Below are positions 9,969 through 61,083 of a stretch of DNA of 64,000 bases, one piece after another; position 1 is the first letter of the stretch, and each line of letters starts with the position of its first letter. Location of the stretch: assembly GCA_000146465.1 (NCBI GenBank), contig CP001947.1. The stretch is one strand, 5' to 3'. The notes below the pieces were generated by a model, which was not told the origin of the DNA, made no database searches, and saw only the letters and a list, made by a program, of their open reading frames with translations. Made by a program: the position numbers and the translations under genes.

Positions 9969-11633
9969 TTATTCAACTTTGATCACAATACTCTTTTCTG
10001 CATTTCTATTCAGATACTCTCCACACCCCACAAATACCTTACATTCACATGCCTTCTTTAGCTCTCCAGAGTCAATGCTGAATCTAACCTTAGCCTTTTT
10101 CGAAAAGTCGTCTATAATCTGTATCTTCCCATAGATAACATTGTCTATGGTCAACATCACAATCCACTTGACAAAAAAGGATTCCTTCATGAAAGGTGCA
10201 TGCACTATAACTTCTCCTTTCTTTTCATCAAGATAGCACTCTCGCTCAAGGGTCACGTTGATTGTTGCAATGCTACCCCCGGGAATCACATACACCGCTT
10301 GCTCAGACCTCCCGTTCCGTACCCCTTCCTCCCCTTCATTCCGGGTAACAAGATTTTCTGTCTCAGACTCAGAGACATCACTAATGTCCTTGACAACCCC
10401 TGTCTCAATCACAGATGCACTGAACTCACTTATCTTAATTACAGGAATGCTTCTGTATACATTCATTCCAGACTCTAGATTGCTTCCTGAGAAGAAAGCC
10501 CTTAGACACTCCTCCTCAGACATCTTCTCCTTCCTATTCTCCTGGATAAATAAGTCTTCAAACCTCACAAAGGGAATCTCCAGCATCCAATACTTCGGAT
10601 CAAATACCGCCTGGATAATCATCGACTCAAGAACCACAAGGCTCTTCACAACATTTCCGTATCTCTTTGCAATTCCAATCGCCTTCATCCCCTCTATCAG
10701 CCGAAGAGATGCTTTTTGCACATACTCCACATCGCTCTTTGCCGCCTGTCCAGTCCTAAACAAATGATCCATCAACACAAGATATCCCTTCCCCTCCTTT
10801 CCACAGTCTCGTAGTGGATATCCAAATCCGCTTTCAATCCGTCCCCGAAGACCCTCTACATTGCTCTTCCATCCATACTCCATAAACTCAACCGACCTCG
10901 TCATAAGGGCCATCAGCTTTTCCACCACGTCATGGTTGTACTTTCCCTGGTTCATCCTGTCATCGATCTTCTCATAAAACATCTCCATCGTTCGGAAGTT
11001 CACTCCCACCCTGTTAAGGTCACGAATTTCCTTCCACTTCCTGTATGCCCACCGGGGAAGCAGTACCCCCAAAAGTAGAGAGTACAACACAAATGCGTAA
11101 ATCCCCTGGCTAACAATCATCTTAGGAATCGCTACAATCTCCCCAGTCTTCGACTCCCTGTTCAGCCACGTCTCGTATTTTTTCTTGTTGCTCACAAGCC
11201 CATACGCCCTGTTGATCATCTTCTGCTTTTCTTCATACTCTTTCCGAAGCTCCTCCGGTGCCTTTCCAAGGTTGTATTTCATCAAGAGCATTCTCAACCT
11301 CTTCTTAATCTCCTTCTCTCCCGCATCCTCGTCTATCCCAAGCACCTCCAAAGGGTTAAATCCCTTCTTGTACTCAATCTTCAAAGTTCGGATATTCCCA
11401 ACCAAATACGATATAACAATCCATATAATAATTGTAAATACCTTCCTCTTAGTCTTCCTCTTCACATTCTTGTTTTTACATCCAGGGCAAAAGCACCGTA
11501 CCCTTCGGATCGGCGTACTATCAACCAAGTCGTATGTCATATACAAAGCCACAGGAACCAGCATCGATAGCAACAAATAGCTCGAGGCAAGCCCCGACTC
11601 ATCATACTCGTAGTCATATGCCATCAAGGGCAT
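9969..11633 (-). CDS. SEC63: Sec63-like ER translocation protein: three TM segments, a degenerate J domain, and a Sec63/Brl domain
   Basis: 554 aa. Two N-terminal TM helices, a lumenal J-like segment (NPLEVLGIDEDAGEKEIKKRLRMLLMKYN, no HPD), a third TM, then a long cytosolic domain, matching Sec63 topology. Confidence 0.5.
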   Translation of the reverse strand: MPLMAYDYEYDESGLASSYLLLSMLVPVALYMTYDLVDSTPIRRVRCFCPGCKNKNVKRKTKRKVFTIIIWIVISYLVGNIRTLKIEYKKGFNPLEVLGIDEDAGEKEIKKRLRMLLMKYNLGKAPEELRKEYEEKQKMINRAYGLVSNKKKYETWLNRESKTGEIVAIPKMIVSQGIYAFVLYSLLLGVLLPRWAYRKWKEIRDLNRVGVNFRTMEMFYEKIDDRMNQGKYNHDVVEKLMALMTRSVEFMEYGWKSNVEGLRGRIESGFGYPLRDCGKEGKGYLVLMDHLFRTGQAAKSDVEYVQKASLRLIEGMKAIGIAKRYGNVVKSLVVLESMIIQAVFDPKYWMLEIPFVRFEDLFIQENRKEKMSEEECLRAFFSGSNLESGMNVYRSIPVIKISEFSASVIETGVVKDISDVSESETENLVTRNEGEEGVRNGRSEQAVYVIPGGSIATINVTLERECYLDEKKGEVIVHAPFMKESFFVKWIVMLTIDNVIYGKIQIIDDFSKKAKVRFSIDSGELKKACECKVFVGCGEYLNRNAEKSIVIKVE

Positions 11634-11691
11634 TTGTTGATTTCCAAAAAAACAAAAATTTAATCTCTATTCATCCAGGGTCTCCATCCCC

Positions 11692-14501: not shown

Positions 14502-14524
14502 GAAAAATTTGCAGCCCCAGGAAA
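14502..14524 (+). promoter_or_regulatory. AAATTT-like plus CCC-like upstream motif of RPL5 (GAAAAATTTGCAGCCCCAGGAAA directly before ATG)
   Basis: Read in sequence. The same module occurs upstream of RPL19, RPL14, RPS18 and RPL36 in this window. Matches the transcription signals described for microsporidian highly expressed genes. Confidence 0.5.
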
Positions 14525-15413
14525 ATGGTAAGTGGCACATGGTAATTTTAAGAGTAATGCAAAGGGGACCAGGAACTACCACAAGAACTTCCAGGTGAAG
14601 AGAAGAAGAAGACGAGAGGGCAAGACCGACTACAAGCACAGAACCAATATGATTCGACAGGATTCCAACTCATACGGGTCTGTGAAGCACAGGCTGGTTG
14701 TCCGGATTACAAAGAGCCGGGTGATTTGCCAGATCACAGGAGCCTACATGGATGGAGACCGAGTGATGGTGTATGCAGACTCGTCTGAGCTGAAGAAGTA
14801 TGGAATCAACTTTGGGCTTACAAACTACTCTGCAGCATATGCAACTGGATTCCTGATTGGAAGAAGGGCACTGACAGCATTGTCTCTGGATGGAGTATAT
14901 GGGCCCAAGGAGATTGACGGGACATACAGTATTACGGAGGATGTTGATGGAGAGAGAAAGGCGCCCAAGGTGTTCCTCGACATTGGACTTGCAAGGTCCA
15001 CAAAGGGAGCAAAGGTGTTTGGAGCAATGAAGGGAGCATCTGATGCAGGACTGAACATCCCACACAGCGAGGTGAAGTTCTATGGGTACCAAGAGGATGG
15101 GAGCTTTGATGCAAAGGAGCTGCACGACAGGATTTTTGGATACAACGTCTCTGAGTACATGCAGAAGTTGCGGGACAGTGATGAAGAGAAGTACAAGACC
15201 CAGTTTTCAGACTATATCAAGAAAGGCATCTCGGCCGAGGACATTCCACAGATCTACAAGAGTGCTCTGGACAAGATTGCATCAGACCCATCGAAGGAAG
15301 CAAGGGAAGTGAAGGACTACTCTTCGCTTAAGAAGTACCGGCCGGTTCGACTTACATATGAGGAGCGCAAGGAGAGGATACAGGCCAAGCTTTCCACGAT
15401 TGAGAGCGAATAA
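14525..15413 (+). CDS. RPL5: 60S ribosomal protein L5 (uL18); exon 1 is ATG 14525-14527, a 25-nt intron spans 14528-14552, and exon 2 is 14553-15413
   Basis: The ORF-track protein (from GTG 14532) is RPL5 ([15 protein letters not shown]...). In that frame a stop lies immediately upstream and there is no ATG. ATGGTAAGT at 14525 and TTTTAAG ending at 14552 restore the frame to give [28 protein letters not shown]. Confidence 0.85.
14528..14552 (+). other. Spliceosomal intron of RPL5, 25 nt: GTAAGTGGCACATGGTAATTTTAAG
   Basis: GTAAGT donor immediately after ATG, TAATTTT branch-like element, AG acceptor, frame preserved. Confidence 0.75.
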
Positions 15414-25358: not shown

Positions 25359-25681
25359 GAGGTCCTATCTACTGGTGTGTATCCTGGAGTTTGGTAGTTA
25401 AGGAAATTTTTGTATCCCCCTGGATGAAAGAAAGCGATAGACAAATATTTTTTGATGTCAATGCTATCCACAGCTCCACGGAAACAACAGAAGAGGACGA
25501 GATATCCGATATGTTTGATGAAAGGATGTTTAATGACTCCCTTGGAGGAGGAGATTTCATTAAGCTTGAAGAGGAATTAAAAAAGGTAAGGAGCATCAAG
25601 AAACAATAGGCATATTTGCATTCATACTATTCCTAAATTGTGAATAAAGGCTTAAATGCTCTCGATATTCCTTCTTCATGT

Positions 25682-39523: not shown

Positions 39524-40068
39524 TCAAGACGAGACTGCTCTGTTCGACAAGTTAAGTGCCTCTGCCTGCTCGGCAAGCTCTCGGGCTCTTTGCTCATCGG
39601 CCTTTCTCTTGATTATGCTATCTTTCATGTGGAATCTGTGCTTGAAAAGATGGCCCTTTGCCTGCTTGTAAAACACTCGGAAGTCTTCCTTGGTGATCTC
39701 TCCATTGGCCCTCATCTCCTTCAGCATCTTCCTCATTGCACGAATCTTCTTCATCCATAGCTCCTTCCTTGGCATTCTTGCATTGGCCGTACCAAAGCGC
39801 TTTCCAGGCCCCATGTGCCTCCCCTTCTTCTTGGCTGCCAGGCGCTTTCGGAGTCGTCCTCTGCTGGTGTGCTTGTCCTGCTTCATAATAATCACATTGT
39901 CTTGTATCAGCTGCCTAATCTGATCCCGAGTGGTTGCTCCGTTGAGCCTCTCAATTTCGTTGTTATCCAACCAAAGCTTCTTCTTCCCACATCCTAGGAT
40001 GTCTGCTGCCAAACGCCTGACTCTCTCCTCGTTCGACCTTCAAATTAGAAATGATCCATCACTTACAT
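39524..40068 (-). CDS. RPL19: 60S ribosomal protein L19e; exon 1 is AT at 40068-40067, a 29-nt intron spans 40066-40038, and exon 2 is 40037-39524
   Basis: The ORF-track protein (TTG start) is L19e but lacks the conserved N-terminus. AAAATGTAAGTG on the minus strand gives AT|GTAAGT...TTTGAAG|G. Splicing completes ATG and yields MSNEERVRRLAADILGCGKKKLWLD, matching the L19e N-terminus. Confidence 0.8.
40038..40066 (-). other. Spliceosomal intron of RPL19, 29 nt, sitting inside the start codon: GTAAGTGATGGATCATTTCTAATTTGAAG
   Basis: GTAAGT donor begins at the G of ATG, CTAATTT branch-like element, AG acceptor, frame restored. Confidence 0.7.
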
Positions 40069-40089
40069 TTTTAGGGTGCAAATTTTTCC
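40069..40089 (-). promoter_or_regulatory. AAATTT/CCC upstream module of RPL19 (GGAAAAATTTGCACCCTAAAA before ATG)
   Basis: Read in sequence. Nearly identical to the RPL14 module at 53015-53034. Confidence 0.5.
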
Positions 40090-40152
40090 GGGCTTTTGCC
40101 TAAAGGCCTGATCAAACAACTCTCCAAAAACAAGATTTATTCGTCCGAGTCT

Positions 40153-41801: not shown

Positions 41802-42263
41802 TTATTTCTTTCTTGAAACACCCATGGACTTCCCACGTCTTCCATTTGACTTGGTCCTTTGTCCACGGACCTTGAGGCCAACATCGAGTCTGCATGCTCT
41901 GATGCGCTTGTTCTTCTTTCCTCTTTCAATCATCATTCTTAGATCTGCATCGAGTTTTGTACCTATGAGATGGGATGTTGTCCCGTCAACAGGATCCTTC
42001 TGATGGTTTAGATAAGATTCCGGAATTCCTAGGCTTGCAGGGTCGAGAATTGCATCTGAAATCCTCTTCATCTCCTCCTCAGACATTTCTCCGGCACGCC
42101 TCTTCAAATCAATCCCAAGGCGCTTGCATATGGCTGTCGAGATTCTTATTCCCACACCTCTGATCTTTGTAAGAGCAAAAGCAATTCTCTTTGTCCCGTC
42201 AATGTTGGTGTTGTGGATACGAACGATGTACTGGACGTCAGCCGGGTCGTAGACATAGTTCAT
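41802..42263 (-). CDS. RPS18: 40S ribosomal protein S18 (uS13)
   Basis: 153 aa. VRIHNTNIDGTKRIAFALTKIRGVGIRIS...RACRLDVGLKVRGQRTKSNGRRGKSMGVSRKK. Confidence 0.9.
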   Translation of the reverse strand: MNYVYDPADVQYIVRIHNTNIDGTKRIAFALTKIRGVGIRISTAICKRLGIDLKRRAGEMSEEEMKRISDAILDPASLGIPESYLNHQKDPVDGTTSHLIGTKLDADLRMMIERGKKNKRIRACRLDVGLKVRGQRTKSNGRRGKSMGVSRKK

Positions 42264-42282
42264 TTAAGGGATTAAATTTTTC
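42264..42282 (-). promoter_or_regulatory. AAATTT/CCC upstream module of RPS18 (GAAAAATTTAATCCCTTAA before ATG)
   Basis: Read in sequence. Confidence 0.45.
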
Positions 42283-42358: not shown

Positions 42359-42643
42359 TTATTCCTCCAGAAGCATCTTTGTCAACTTCTTCATCCTCTT
42401 TCCTGCACGCTTGTGAGACCCCAATCTCTTTCGGAGAATCCTCTGTGCCTTGCTATTGTTCTTTGCCTCAATAAGCGAAATAACTTTCTTCTCAAGTGGA
42501 GAATAACCGCATAACTCCTCTGCAACTGAGGCTGCAAACATGCGTATCTTTCCAGACTCCTCGCTGGGCTTCTTGGCTTCTCTCTTCACATCGGGCCTCT
42601 TTACTGGATAACGTACTCGAACTTTCTTGAGAGCGTTCTTCAT
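42359..42643 (-). CDS. RPL36: 60S ribosomal protein L36e
   Basis: The ORF track gives a 197-aa ORF. Only the C-terminal 94 aa, from the ATG at 42643 (CAT at 42641-42643 confirmed), match L36e (..SPLEKKVISLIEAKNNSKAQRILRKRLGSHKRAGKRMKKL). Confidence 0.8.
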   Translation of the reverse strand: MKNALKKVRVRYPVKRPDVKREAKKPSEESGKIRMFAASVAEELCGYSPLEKKVISLIEAKNNSKAQRILRKRLGSHKRAGKRMKKLTKMLLEE

Positions 42644-42647
42644 TGCA

Positions 42648-42664
42648 GGGCCGAGAAAAATTTT
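42648..42664 (-). promoter_or_regulatory. AAATTT/CCC upstream module of RPL36 (AAAATTTTTCTCGGCCCTGCA before ATG)
   Basis: Read in sequence. Confidence 0.45.
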
Positions 42665-48201: not shown

Positions 48202-49140
48202 ATGACGATGGAAATTAATAATAAGGAGGATGAAAATCTCTCTAGCTTTAAAAGGAATCTCAGGAAGATGATTCAACTGGAGGAGGAGGCCAAGAAGAGG
48301 AGAGAAGATCAAAGGTCCCGGAAGCTGGTCTCTATCAGGGTTGGGAAGATTGAGGGAATGGGAGAGTCACCTGAAAGAAAATTTGTTCAGGACAGGAAAA
48401 GGGTATTTGAAGAGCCAAAGGTGGAATATGAAGGAGAAGGAAAAGTAAGAGAGAGGATAGAAAGTTTCAGCAAGAAGGATGATGGTGTGGACGAAAGGAT
48501 TTTAGGCGAAGAAGAAAAGAAGGGTTTTGTTTATGATAAAGACCATGGAAGGAATGGAGAAGAGGCCCAAAACAGCACCAATGCTGAGAGGAAGGGTAGT
48601 GAGAGCCTGAAGATTGTAGAAGAATGTAAGATAAGTGTCAACAGAGAGGTATTGGAATCTGGACCTAAATATAAAGACGAAGAAGCAGAGGATGAATGCT
48701 TCAAAGAGATTTCCGTTGAAGACATCAAAAAGAGCCTCCTTGCAGAATTAGATTCGGAGAGGGAAAGTGAAGCAGATATCATAAGTACTGTGATGAAGTC
48801 TGAAAACTCAGCACCTTCGCAGCAGGAAGTTATATATGTTGACAGAGAAAGTAGTTCTTTGGAAACAGAAAAGAACCCATATAACATAGGGTGTAATGTA
48901 TATGCTTACGACATCCACTATAAGATCTCTGATCTGTCTTGGGGGAACCCATCTGGACATATAACTCCTAATGAAAAAGAACCATCGATTAGTAGCAACA
49001 AAAGTCCTGTAAGGGAACATGGAGACGTTAATCTGGAGGATGGACCTGTAACTTACCAAGATCTTGACGAGGAAAAGGAGGAGAAGGGATGGTTTTCTTT
49101 GATATTTGAGTCCGTTTTTTCTATCTGCTGTGGTAAGTAG
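48202..49140 (+). CDS. Hypothetical acidic (E/K-rich) protein
   Basis: 312-aa ORF with ATG start and a low-complexity charged sequence. Confidence 0.4.
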   Translation: MTMEINNKEDENLSSFKRNLRKMIQLEEEAKKRREDQRSRKLVSIRVGKIEGMGESPERKFVQDRKRVFEEPKVEYEGEGKVRERIESFSKKDDGVDERILGEEEKKGFVYDKDHGRNGEEAQNSTNAERKGSESLKIVEECKISVNREVLESGPKYKDEEAEDECFKEISVEDIKKSLLAELDSERESEADIISTVMKSENSAPSQQEVIYVDRESSSLETEKNPYNIGCNVYAYDIHYKISDLSWGNPSGHITPNEKEPSISSNKSPVREHGDVNLEDGPVTYQDLDEEKEEKGWFSLIFESVFSICCGK

Positions 49141-49236
49141 AAATAAAGAGTTGTAATAGTTTTTAGCTAAGCCTAAGGGTCTTTGTCTTTATGCATCCAA
49201 GTAATAAAATTTATAGACGAAAATTCTAGCCCTGAG

Positions 49237-50346
49237 ATGGTTGACCGAAAGGTGCTGTTTGCAAGGTCTTCGAAGTCAAATAACTTGAGCATGGGAATAG
49301 TTGGACTTCCAAATGTAGGGAAGTCAACTCTTTTCAACTTTCTTACAAGGAACAATGTTCCTGCGGAAAATTACCCGTTCTGCACGATTGATCCTTCGGA
49401 AGGTCGTGTGGAGATTCAGGACGAGAGAGTGGACTTTCTGGAAAAGAAGTACTCTCCTCAAAATGTTGTGAAGGCATATTTAAGTATAACAGACATAGCC
49501 GGACTTGTCAAGGGAGCTAGTACTGGAGTTGGGCTTGGAAATCATTTTCTGGACAACATCCGAAGTGTGGATGGAATATTTCATGTTGTAAGATGCTTTG
49601 AAGATACAGGAGTGGCTCATTTTGAGGATGGGGTTGATCCAATAAGAGACATAGAAATAGTCAACGAGGAGCTGAGGCTCAAGGACTATGAGACTATGGT
49701 TCGCCATGAAGAGAAAATGTCGAAGGATCTGAAGTCGAAACCTTCTGACAAAAAGCTGAAGGATCAGGTTTTGCTGGTCAGGAGGCTTGTGGAGATATTG
49801 AAGAGCGATTGGGTAAACAAGCATTCGTTCAACGAAGAAGAGATTGGATACATAAGCACTCTGAATCTGCTCACAGTGAAGAATGTAGTGTATCTAGCCA
49901 ATATCAGTGAGAAGGATTATGAAATGCGGCGGGCAAACAAGCACCTACGAGCGGTTATGAAGTATTCTGAGGATGTTATTGTGTTTAGTGCTACATATGA
50001 GGCCAACCATGAATCCAAGGTATTTTTGAACAAGCTTGTAAAGAAGGGATATGAGTCTTTAGACCTAATAAACTTCTTTACTGTGGGAAAGGACGAGGTC
50101 AGGAGCTGGACGATAAGAAGAGGAATAAATGCACCTTCTGCAGGGGCAGTAATCCACACGGACTTCAAGAAATATTTTATTATGGCCGAGGTGATGTCTT
50201 TTGAAGATTTCAAGACATATGGAGGAGAGGCTGAGGTCAAGAAGGCTGGAAAGTACCACCAGAGAGGGAAAACATACATTGTTAATGACGGAGACATAAT
50301 TCTCTTCAAGGTCAATCCACCCAAGTCCACAGGAAAGAAGAAATGA
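49237..50346 (+). CDS. OLA1: Obg-like ATPase 1 (OLA1/YchF)
   Basis: G1 GIVGLPNVGKSTLFN, a YchF-type G domain, and C-terminal TGS and ThrRS-like regions. The track starts at TTG 49183; first ATG is at 49237. Confidence 0.85.
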   Translation: MVDRKVLFARSSKSNNLSMGIVGLPNVGKSTLFNFLTRNNVPAENYPFCTIDPSEGRVEIQDERVDFLEKKYSPQNVVKAYLSITDIAGLVKGASTGVGLGNHFLDNIRSVDGIFHVVRCFEDTGVAHFEDGVDPIRDIEIVNEELRLKDYETMVRHEEKMSKDLKSKPSDKKLKDQVLLVRRLVEILKSDWVNKHSFNEEEIGYISTLNLLTVKNVVYLANISEKDYEMRRANKHLRAVMKYSEDVIVFSATYEANHESKVFLNKLVKKGYESLDLINFFTVGKDEVRSWTIRRGINAPSAGAVIHTDFKKYFIMAEVMSFEDFKTYGGEAEVKKAGKYHQRGKTYIVNDGDIILFKVNPPKSTGKKK

Positions 50347-52187: not shown

Positions 52188-52632
52188 GGCTAAAGACCAA
52201 GAGAAGGTTTACATGCTTTTGGAACTAGAAAGGATCCGGCAGCTGAATATCCCGCACGTGTATGCATTTCCTACTGGAACTCTGGAATTCACATGTGCAA
52301 TGTTCCGAGGCTCGGACCATACTGTCTTCAAGCTAATAAAATCAGACATTTATGAGAAGTGGAGTGTCCTAATCGATGGGGAATGTAGTGAGGAAATGAA
52401 CAAGATGTCTGGCTCATGCGATGCACATATAACACTAGAAACAACTGTACAGACACTAAGCAGATGCCATAATACCAGTCTCTTTGGAAAGTCTAAAAAC
52501 ATCTTTCCATTTATTTCCGAAGGTTTTCCAAACAGAGAGAAAAATATTACAGCGCTTTTGCTCTTTGTTAAAAATAGATGTTCCAAGACAAATGGTTGTG
52601 GAGAGAAGATGGCTATTCAGATAAAAGAGTAG
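52180..52632 (+). CDS. Hypothetical protein
   Basis: The track ORF starts at TTG 52165. In-frame ATGs at 52180 and 52186 lie within a CCATGG shared with the divergent SAP gene start. No recognised domain. Confidence 0.3.
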   Translation: MSMAKDQEKVYMLLELERIRQLNIPHVYAFPTGTLEFTCAMFRGSDHTVFKLIKSDIYEKWSVLIDGECSEEMNKMSGSCDAHITLETTVQTLSRCHNTSLFGKSKNIFPFISEGFPNREKNITALLLFVKNRCSKTNGCGEKMAIQIKE

Positions 52633-52663
52633 AAACAAACAGAAGCGAAGATAAGATGTTTAA

Positions 52664-53014
52664 TCATGCCAGTCCCTTTTCCTTTAGGAGCTCGTCCTCA
52701 ACTCTTTTCCTCAGCTTCATCTGGAATCTCTCGAAATCATTGGTTGTATCCTCCTCACTAATGCTTTCTGGAATGAGCTTTCCTATCTCTTCTGGACTAA
52801 GATCCTTAATGTCAAACGACTCATCCTCAAGGTGGAGATTAGATATAGAGCACATTTCCCTCTCTCCATCCTTCCTCTGGAGAAGTACAAAGGTTGCATC
52901 GATGATGCCAACAATTATGCCATATGTTTTTCTTTTTTCTTTGAGTGCAGGTGTCACAATCCTTCCCAGCCTTACTGTCTTCTAAAGTTAGCCAAAAAGA
53001 AGCTCACTTACCAT
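52664..53014 (-). CDS. RPL14: 60S ribosomal protein L14e; exon 1 is ATG at 53014-53012, a 30-nt intron spans 53011-52982, and exon 2 is 52981-52664
   Basis: The ORF-track 97-aa ORF begins at GTG with no early ATG. Its sequence (YGIIVGIIDATFVLLQ...NDFERFQMKLRKR) matches L14e. Upstream, ATGGTAAGTGAGC...GGCTAACTTTAG|AAG restores the frame to give MKTVRLGRIVTPALKEK..., matching the L14e N-terminus (FKRFVEIGRVALV). Confidence 0.8.
52982..53011 (-). other. Spliceosomal intron of RPL14, 30 nt: GTAAGTGAGCTTCTTTTTGGCTAACTTTAG
   Basis: GTAAGT donor directly after ATG, CTAAC branch-like element, AG acceptor, frame preserved. Confidence 0.75.
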
Positions 53015-53034
53015 TTTTAGGGCAAATTTTTGTG
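53015..53034 (-). promoter_or_regulatory. AAATTT/CCC upstream module of RPL14 (CACAAAAATTTGCCCTAAAA before ATG)
   Basis: Read in sequence. Almost identical to the RPL19 module. Confidence 0.5.
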
Positions 53035-53061
53035 TAGATTTAACCGTAGGAAAGTACACTG

Positions 53062-53379
53062 GTGAATCCCCAGGCACAGATGAAGATAACAGACTTGCAG
53101 AATGAGGTCAACCACCTCCTGTTTCTTTATTTCACATCTATAGGGGTCATCCAAAGAGATGCGGGACTAGGAGACATTTACGACAAGATGGAAGAGCTGA
53201 AGAGAGAGATTGATGACTGCCGAAAAAGGATTATGCGGCTCATGGACTCTGAGGAAGTGGATGTAGAACTCTGCAATGACTACAAAGAAATCATCACCGA
53301 GGGTAAGGAATTTGTGAGAGATGGGCTGAGTTTCCTTGACAAGCTTCTGAAGAAAGACTATGGACCTGGAAACTATTAA
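53062..53379 (+). CDS. MED21: Mediator complex subunit 21 (Srb7)
   Basis: 105 aa. N-terminal ITDLQNEVNHLLFLYFTSIGVIQ matches the Med21 signature (DRLTQLQDAVN..FCNAIGVLQ), followed by coiled-coil heptads. Confidence 0.6.
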   Translation: MNPQAQMKITDLQNEVNHLLFLYFTSIGVIQRDAGLGDIYDKMEELKREIDDCRKRIMRLMDSEEVDVELCNDYKEIITEGKEFVRDGLSFLDKLLKKDYGPGNY

Positions 53380-60411: not shown

Positions 60412-60957
60412 CTATTTTCCCACCAGGCCCGAATTCACATTCTTTTCTTCAGCAATCTTGTTATAGACGGCCTTCTCGTCGTCGCTGAGTTCTTTCCATC
60501 TCTTTGCAACAGCAGACGTAGTCTCCATCATCGTGAAGCTGGGATTCTCTTCAGAAACAGCTTTTCGGACTGCCTTAAAGAACTCGTTGTACCCAGTTAC
60601 TTTCTTGGCTCCTTTTTTCTTTCTTCCAGCTGCTGCTTCATCAGCTGCAACCTTCTCAAGATAATCCTGGTACTCATCGCTCTTCTTGTATTCCTCAACC
60701 TTTGCCAGATATAGCTCTCTCTCCTTGTTTGAAATCTTGTTGTATTCCTCTCTTTCCTCATCAGAGAGCTTCTTCCACATCTCAGAAATAGATCTTCCTT
60801 GGTCTGCTACGGGTAGCTTGCTCAGTTCCTCATTCTTCTTCCTTTGCTCCTGCCCAAAAATAAAGTACCCCGACATAGGCTTCTTCGGTGCATTGGGGTC
60901 CTTGCGTTTTTTTACTGCCGCTTTACTCCTTGGCTTTTTGCTCTTCTCAGTTACCAT
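60412..60957 (-). CDS. HMGB-type protein with two HMG boxes
   Basis: 181 aa. KDPNAPKKPMSGYFIFGQEQRKK...SEMWKKLSDEEREEYNK and KKVTGYNEFFKAVRK...AKRWKELSDDEKAVYNK. Confidence 0.75.
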   Translation of the reverse strand: MVTEKSKKPRSKAAVKKRKDPNAPKKPMSGYFIFGQEQRKKNEELSKLPVADQGRSISEMWKKLSDEEREEYNKISNKERELYLAKVEEYKKSDEYQDYLEKVAADEAAAGRKKKGAKKVTGYNEFFKAVRKAVSEENPSFTMMETTSAVAKRWKELSDDEKAVYNKIAEEKNVNSGLVGK

Positions 60958-61083
60958 AATGATGGGGGTAGAAGAAATAGCTTATAAAATTTTAATAAGA
61001 ACCAGCCCAGTCGATATTTTACAGTTAAATCGCCCTTCTAACCTCTTATCATATGCAGTAGATACCAATTGATAGAGTGTCTT

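Follow-up and report, generated by a model that had tools for sequence, protein, structure and literature searches.

Near-identical 5' ends of the eL19 and eL14 genes of Encephalitozoon intestinalis are probably adjoining known signals of ribosomal-protein genes

The eL19 and eL14 genes of Encephalitozoon intestinalis begin with almost the same sequence, and it is very probable that the block they have in common consists of four short known signals, each independently constrained and placed next to one another, and is not one repeated element. The block comprises 28-29 bases on the minus strand (40059-40087 in eL19, 53004-53031 in eL14) of the 64,000-nucleotide stretch of DNA analyzed here (the window), which belongs to chromosome VI of E. 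intestinalis ATCC 50506 and has a GC content of ~42%. Three neighbouring proteins are exact matches to E. intestinalis ATCC 50506 records, for example Eint_061160.

On the minus strand, the 5' end of eL19 is AAAAATTTGCACCCTAAAAATGTAAGTGATGG (40087 -> 40056) and that of eL14 is AAAAATTTGCCCTAAAAATGGTAAGTGAGC (53031 -> 53002). A sequence-only reading of the window had described these two ends as near-identical and about 13 kb apart on one strand. The range that it gave for eL14, 53006-53034, contains or adjoins this end. Both observations hold, as 27 of the 30 columns in the best alignment are identical (9 + 11 + 7, split by a 2-nt and a 1-nt gap) and the blocks lie 12,946 nt apart. The string that it gave for eL19 was exact. 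For eL14, however, it gave four Cs (GC-CCCT) where the sequence has three (TTTGCCCT), and therefore the gap on the promoter side is 2 nt (CA) and not 1. It had also attributed the different placement of the two introns to ATG versus ATGG, and this is correct, since the eL19 intron opens at the G of ATG and the eL14 intron opens just after ATG. The features of these genes and of the others discussed below are collected in Table 1.

Table 1. Positions of the signals, exons and introns in the window
Feature	Position	Strand	Basis or remark
eL14 AAATTT-like promoter signal, AAAAATTT	53024..53031	-	motif as defined in Peyretaillade 2009
eL14 CCC-like motif, -8..-6 from ATG	53020..53022	-	sequence
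eL14 start codon, entire exon 1, TAAAA before ATG	53012..53014	-	spliced product fits 7qep_M4 from residue 1
eL14 intron, 30 nt, GTAAGTGAGC...GGCTAACTTTAG, GT-AG, CTAAC branch-point-like site	52982..53011	-	
eL14 exon 2, 105 codons + stop	52664..52981	-	E=4.7e-53 to 7QEP chain ECU06_1215
eL14 up to ATG, AAAAATTTGCCCTAAAAATG		-	30-nt intron after ATG
eL19 AAATTT-like signal, AAAAATTT	40080..40087	-	sequence
eL19 CCC-like motif within GCACCCT, -8..-6	40074..40076	-	GCACCC conserved in all five taxa
eL19 ATG	40066..40068	-	exon 1 is AT only (40067-40068); G 40066 is the first intron base
eL19 intron, 29 nt, GTAAGTGATGG...TTTCTAATTTGAAG	40038..40066	-	
eL19 exon 2	39524..40037	-	Pfam Ribosomal_L19e; 7qep_M9
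eL19 up to ATG, AAAAATTTGCACCCTAAAAATG		-	29-nt intron from G of ATG
uL18/RPL5 5' end, third copy of the layout, AAAAATTTGCAGCCCCAGGAAAATG to ATG	14503..14552	+	25-nt intron 14528-14552, begins GTAAGTGG directly after ATG
uS13/RPS18 promoter + ATG, AAAAATTTAATCCCTTAAATG, no intron	42261..42281	-	Pfam identity
eL36 promoter + ATG, AAAATTTTTCTCGGCCCTGCAATG, no intron	42641..42664	-	Pfam identity
Three non-ribosomal carriers of an AAATTT-like run	60412-60984; 49201-50346; 9969-11661	-; +; -	

The exon models of both genes are full-length. Removal of the intron from eL14 gives a product of 106 aa that aligns over its entire length (1-106/1-106) with 7qep_M4, which is ECU06_1215 in the E. cuniculi ribosome 7QEP, and the same product aligns with eL14 from two further microsporidian ribosomes. 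Pfam Ribosomal_L14e scored 13.8 bits on the 106-aa product, which is under the cut-off, so the identity of eL14 is not given by Pfam alone and comes instead from the microsporidian ribosome structures. The unspliced sequence reads to a stop after 8 codons. E. cuniculi and E. hellem have the eL14 intron at the same position and with the same length (gene span 351 nt, 106 aa), and the AAATTT-like signal of the orthologues is AAAATTTT or AAAAATTT. Among NCBI-named eL14 records, a protein search returned those of E. cuniculi (ECU06_1215), E. hellem (EHEL_061160) and O. colligata and none for E. intestinalis, for which only a 97-aa ORF fragment from a Logan assembly was found. The E. intestinalis eL14 gene (52664-53014, minus strand) may be absent from public annotation, and the signals at its 5' end confirm it as a gene. 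A 135-codon ORF antisense to eL14 (52578-52985, plus strand), which came from naive ORF selection, is almost certainly spurious. Just upstream of the eL14 A-run there is also a block, GTTAAATC (53037-53044, minus strand), that is conserved in Encephalitozoon orthologues and not shared with eL19; it sits in the 65-nt divergent spacer between eL14 and a 99-aa ORF (53080-53379, plus strand).

The start codon of eL19 is interrupted and is restored by the G that opens exon 2. The gene spans 545 nt, and subtraction of the 29-nt intron leaves 516 nt, or 171 aa and a stop. The spliced product of 171 aa aligns from end to end (1-171/1-171) with 7qep_M9, the eL19 chain of E. cuniculi in 7QEP, and the unspliced sequence reads ATG-TAA. 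Within the intron, E. cuniculi and E. hellem retain TTTCTAATTTGAAG, and all five taxa compared below have CTAATTTGAAG. An interrupted L19 start codon has been reported before, in the legend to Fig. 1 of Cornman et al. (2009; PMC2685015), for both N. ceranae and E. cuniculi. Upstream of the eL19 A-run, CAAAAGCCC (40090-40098, minus strand) is conserved in Encephalitozoon orthologues and is not shared with eL14.

We also scanned the window for an A-run/T-run followed by CCC and then by ATG, and identified the matches by Pfam or PDB. The window holds five ribosomal-protein genes, and in every one (5/5) an A-run/T-run, CCC, 3-6 nt and ATG follow one another; three of the five carry a start-adjacent intron as well. 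The third of these, uL18, has a spliced model that aligns 1-287/1-287 with 7qep_L5, and its unspliced sequence reads to a stop after 6 codons. In eL19, eL14 and uL18 alike, removal of the intron gives a full-length conserved protein and retention an early stop. All three introns have the donor GTAAGTG, end in AG, and carry a branch-point-like motif at the 3' end (TTCTAATTTGAAG in the 29-nt, GGCTAACTTTAG in the 30-nt and GGTAATTTTAAG in the 25-nt intron), and their lengths are within the 22-76 nt known for Encephalitozoon introns. Intron removal has been seen by RNA-seq for E. cuniculi introns in general, and the three introns are probably spliced in E. intestinalis. There are four occurrences of ATG(G)TAAGT in the window, of which three are at ribosomal-protein start sites and one (15357, minus strand) is inside the uL18 gene region without such context.

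The limitation of this arrangement to ribosomal-protein genes in the window rests on the promoter run: A3+T3+ within 35 nt of ATG was found in 5/5 ribosomal-protein genes versus 3/45 other gene models (Fisher p=2.6e-5). The CCC element is general, as CCC or GGG lies within 15 nt of ATG in 32/49 naive gene models in the window; in both eL14 and eL19 it occupies -8..-6, inside the published enrichment zone of -10..-3. The three other genes with an AAATTT-like run within 35 nt of ATG encode an HMG-box protein, a YchF-type GTPase and a Sec63/DnaJ-like protein, in keeping with a published statement that an AAATTT-like signal is present in some highly expressed genes. A ribosomal-type promoter string (AAATTTTTGTATCCCCCTGGATG) is also found upstream of a 61-codon acidic ORF, MKESDRQIFFDVN... 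(25404-25609, plus strand; ORF at 25424), which may be a small, highly expressed gene. Its assignment as Sem1/DSS1 is unsupported, there being no Pfam hit and no BLASTP similarity to an approximate human DSS1 query. An intron-like string of 34 nt, GTAAGTAG...TGTAATAGTTTTTAG (49133-49166, plus strand), overlaps the stop codon of a 312-aa ORF (48202-49140) and contains AATAAA. Its splicing would merely swap the last 2 codons for 12 others, and it is probably a chance match and not a real intron.

The components of the block have been described in other studies of microsporidia. The CCC triplet and its enrichment at -10..-3 were first described by Cornman et al. (PMC2685015). Peyretaillade et al. 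(2009; PMC2803860) found that in five microsporidian species the CCC motif of ribosomal-protein genes has an AAATTT-like signal upstream of it, and reported 5'UTRs of <7 nt from E. cuniculi RACE. Katinka et al. (2001) and Lee et al. (2010), in the part of their work cited by Whelan et al. (2019; PMC6349667), described mini-introns with an extreme 5' bias, mainly in ribosomal-protein genes. The window's promoters resemble those of PMC2803860 and PMC2685015 in their sequence, order and spacing (A-run/T-run, 1-8 nt, CCC, 3-6 nt, ATG), and there is no material difference from the published signals. The eL14 gene (ECU06_1215) is missing from the 2009 table since it was annotated later, and its upstream sequence fits the consensus.

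In terms of these signals, AAAAATTT is the AAATTT-like promoter motif, for which a TATA-like role was proposed by its authors and which presumably serves the common high transcription of ribosomal-protein genes. The next part, G(CA)CCCT, is the general CCC-like motif, within ~10 nt of the start codon, and would lie beside the transcription start. AAAA-ATG would be a very short leader and the start codon, in keeping with the published 5'UTRs, and GTAAGTG would be the strict 5' splice site of the short 5'-biased introns, able to pair with U1 snRNA, the 5' end of which is ACUUACC and complementary to GGUAAGU (Belkorchia et al. 2017). Judging from the cited literature, transcription would start a few bases before ATG, with CCC marking the initiation region; the factors that would bind these motifs are likewise those suggested by published work. 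The extreme compactness of Encephalitozoon 5' regions would have brought the four signals next to one another, and since each of them varies little, genes using the commonest versions would come out near-identical over ~30 nt. Each gene has kept its own version, with GCACCC and an intron inside ATG in eL19, and GCCC and an intron after ATG in eL14.

The likeness of eL19 and eL14 is met with elsewhere among ribosomal-protein genes. The additional table of Peyretaillade et al. (PMC2803860) gives 72 E. cuniculi ribosomal-protein upstream sequences, among them L19 (AAAAAATTTGCACCCTGAAA, with an intron), which is one or two bases apart from eL19 in the window, and the near-identical entries S8 (AAAAAAATTTGCCCTGAA), S4 (AAAAAATTTGCCCTGAAA), L7 (AAATTTTTGCCCTGAAA) and L27 (AAAAAATTTGCCCTAGGA). 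We calculated pairwise distances among these 72 strings and eL14, the latter taken from locus L002, so that the genome-wide distribution is drawn from E. cuniculi, while the E. intestinalis set consists of the 5 ribosomal-protein genes in the window. In E. cuniculi, L19 and L14 are separated by an edit distance of 4, and 148 of 2628 pairs (5.6%) are at no greater distance. L14 has its nearest neighbours in L7 (1 edit) and S4 (2 edits) and L19 has its own in S4 (2) and SA (3), and TTTGCCCT is common to eleven E. cuniculi ribosomal-protein genes. The view that the resemblance goes beyond consensus similarity is therefore unsupported, given these pairs and the closer neighbours that L14 has in L7 and S4. 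Other ribosomal-protein genes do not lack the cassette, which is widespread, and its presence in them makes the L19/L14 finding an ordinary one. The accompanying suggestion of a conserved cis-module is supported in part, as the block consists of conserved cis-signals at ribosomal-protein 5' ends, which all five genes in the window and essentially all 72 in E. cuniculi have.

The five ribosomal-protein genes of the window form 10 pairs, of which L19-L14 is the closest. With 2 edits in the promoter part, the E. intestinalis pair is closer than that of E. cuniculi (4) or E. hellem. The states that bring it together are the A5T3 run and A at -4, each of which is also seen, unlinked, in other species. 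A convergence of eL19 and eL14 in E. intestinalis was considered and rejected, because E. hellem is discordant and the outgroup eL19 has G and then A5, a pattern of independent toggling within the consensus.

We then compared the orthologous loci of E. intestinalis, E. cuniculi, E. hellem, O. colligata and a GC-rich relative represented by Logan run SRR21633403. In all five taxa eL19 has the form ...AAATTTGCACCC[T/C][G/A]AAAATGTAAGTG, with the intron starting from the G of ATG, and eL14 has the form ...TTTGCCCT...AAAATGGTA[A/T]GTG, with the intron after ATG. The CA indel (GCACCC in eL19 versus GCCC in eL14) and the offset between ATG|TAAGT and ATGG|TAAGT are fixed for each gene in all five. 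Orthologues differ by ~1 base over the core, and are more alike than eL19 and eL14 are within one species. The AAATTT-like signal was found upstream of the orthologues in E. cuniculi, E. hellem, the SRR21633403 relative, O. colligata and two distant AT-rich relatives. In the distant AT-rich relatives, eL14 (44% identity) has AAAAAATTTACCCAATG and eL19 (50% identity) has AAAATTTACCCCGAATG; both keep AAATTT-CCC-ATG and neither has an intron. Comparison with sister species, which had been proposed as a check, thus identifies the cassette as ancestral, the form peculiar to each gene being the same in E. cuniculi, E. hellem, the SRR21633403 relative and Ordospora colligata, and the aligned sequences indicate that the eL19 and eL14 layouts each predate the Encephalitozoon/Ordospora split. 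In the SRR21633403 relative, the eL14 and eL19 introns share their first 10 nt, GTAAGTGGGC (L014 ~746-755, L015 ~713-722). The donor extension common to both genes is thus longer here than in the named species, which may be an effect of the GC-rich composition.

A different explanation, and a very unlikely one, is that promoter, start codon and 5' splice site form an obligately coupled module that is selected as one unit. For example, a donor within ~10 nt of the cap could tie splicing to initiation or gate translation. In favor of such a module, GTAAGTG lies at ATG or one base after it in three of the five ribosomal-protein genes in the window, different genera share the layout, and the unspliced reads end at once in eL19 (ATG-TAA) or after 8 and 6 codons in eL14 and uL18. 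Splicing of short introns was moreover found to be low by Grisdale et al. (2013; PMC3629993), with 30/37 below 50%, which leaves room for regulation. However, the same authors saw no strong role, either compensatory or regulatory, for the splicing of ribosomal-protein genes, and some E. cuniculi introns reported in the literature are neither 5'-biased nor in ribosomal-protein genes. In the window, uS13 and eL36 have the promoter but no intron, as do the distant orthologues of eL14 and eL19 with their AAATTT-CCC-ATG. The promoter and intron parts are therefore separable, and the coupling of promoter, start codon and splicing that the sequence-only reading had suggested is very unlikely to be obligatory. 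It is also very unlikely, though conceivable from the sequences, that a donor within ~10 nt of the cap and inside or beside ATG, together with inefficient splicing, serves as a conserved dosage valve for some of the ribosomal proteins. Were this true, unspliced eL19 mRNA would yield Met-stop and unspliced eL14 and uL18 mRNAs peptides of 6-8 residues. With no full protein from such mRNAs, the splicing rate would determine output, and selection would act on the tight spacing of promoter, ATG and donor as one unit and not merely tolerate it.

Gene conversion or a recent duplication, by which one ribosomal-protein 5' end was copied onto the other, is extremely unlikely. It would account for the 27 identical positions out of 30 and for the closeness of this pair among the window's five genes, and it could draw on the A5T3 run that both genes have in E. 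intestinalis and in the SRR21633403 relative, as well as on the 10-nt intron start GTAAGTGGGC shared in the latter. However, the likeness ends abruptly at the block edges, that is, at the functional motifs. Over 60 nt per side of the block only 20/60 positions are identical, and the local alignment scores of 8 and 9 are within the range of shuffled sequence (6.9 +/- 1.3), so that the flanks are at chance level. Each gene keeps its own state of the CA indel and of the ATG/ATGG offset throughout the five taxa, and the A/T junction and the -4 G/A position toggle independently, E. hellem L14 having TAAAA but its L19 TGAAA. The unrelated genes L7, S4 and S8 are as close or closer. Because the eL19 and eL14 5' ends group by gene and not by species, recent gene conversion is unsupported, and the suggestion of conversion between ribosomal-protein 5' ends is not upheld by the chance-level flanks or by the gene-specific indels of five genomes. 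A chance match of two short AT-rich stretches is next to impossible, for although the block is short and partly A/T homopolymer, and its 11-mer CCCTAAAAATG is not rarer than chance with one mismatch allowed (2 found vs 1.8 expected), the 22-nt block pattern had no hit in 100 shuffles, the core local alignment score of 22 (6.1 +/- 1.2 in shuffled sequence) was reached in 0/500, and both copies lie exactly at ribosomal-protein start codons and are conserved in orthologues.

The explanation by four adjoining signals carries little weight as a discovery, as all of its components are already published. The AAATTT and CCC signals, the 5'-biased mini-introns and the split start codon of L19 became known between 2001 and 2013. 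The introns of the window resemble the mini-introns of Encephalitozoon and Nosema in being GT-AG introns of 25-30 nt with a GTAAGT donor and a CTAAY branch-point-like site 4-7 nt before AG, and in lying directly after ATG, or inside it for L19; they differ in being those of E. intestinalis orthologues. The signals are nevertheless of use for annotation, where they mark true start codons and tiny first exons. The case also illustrates how extreme genome compaction can give unrelated genes the semblance of a common repeated element. Promoter elements specific to ribosomal-protein genes, and introns retained in such genes, occur in other eukaryotes as well, in the form of the metazoan TCT/5'TOP initiator and the intron-rich ribosomal-protein genes of yeast. 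The arrangement described here is alike in concept, with a dedicated core-promoter signal and 5'-proximal introns preferentially kept in an intron-poor genome. However, the sequences and factors are different, and microsporidia pack all of these elements into ~30 nt with a leader of only a few bases.
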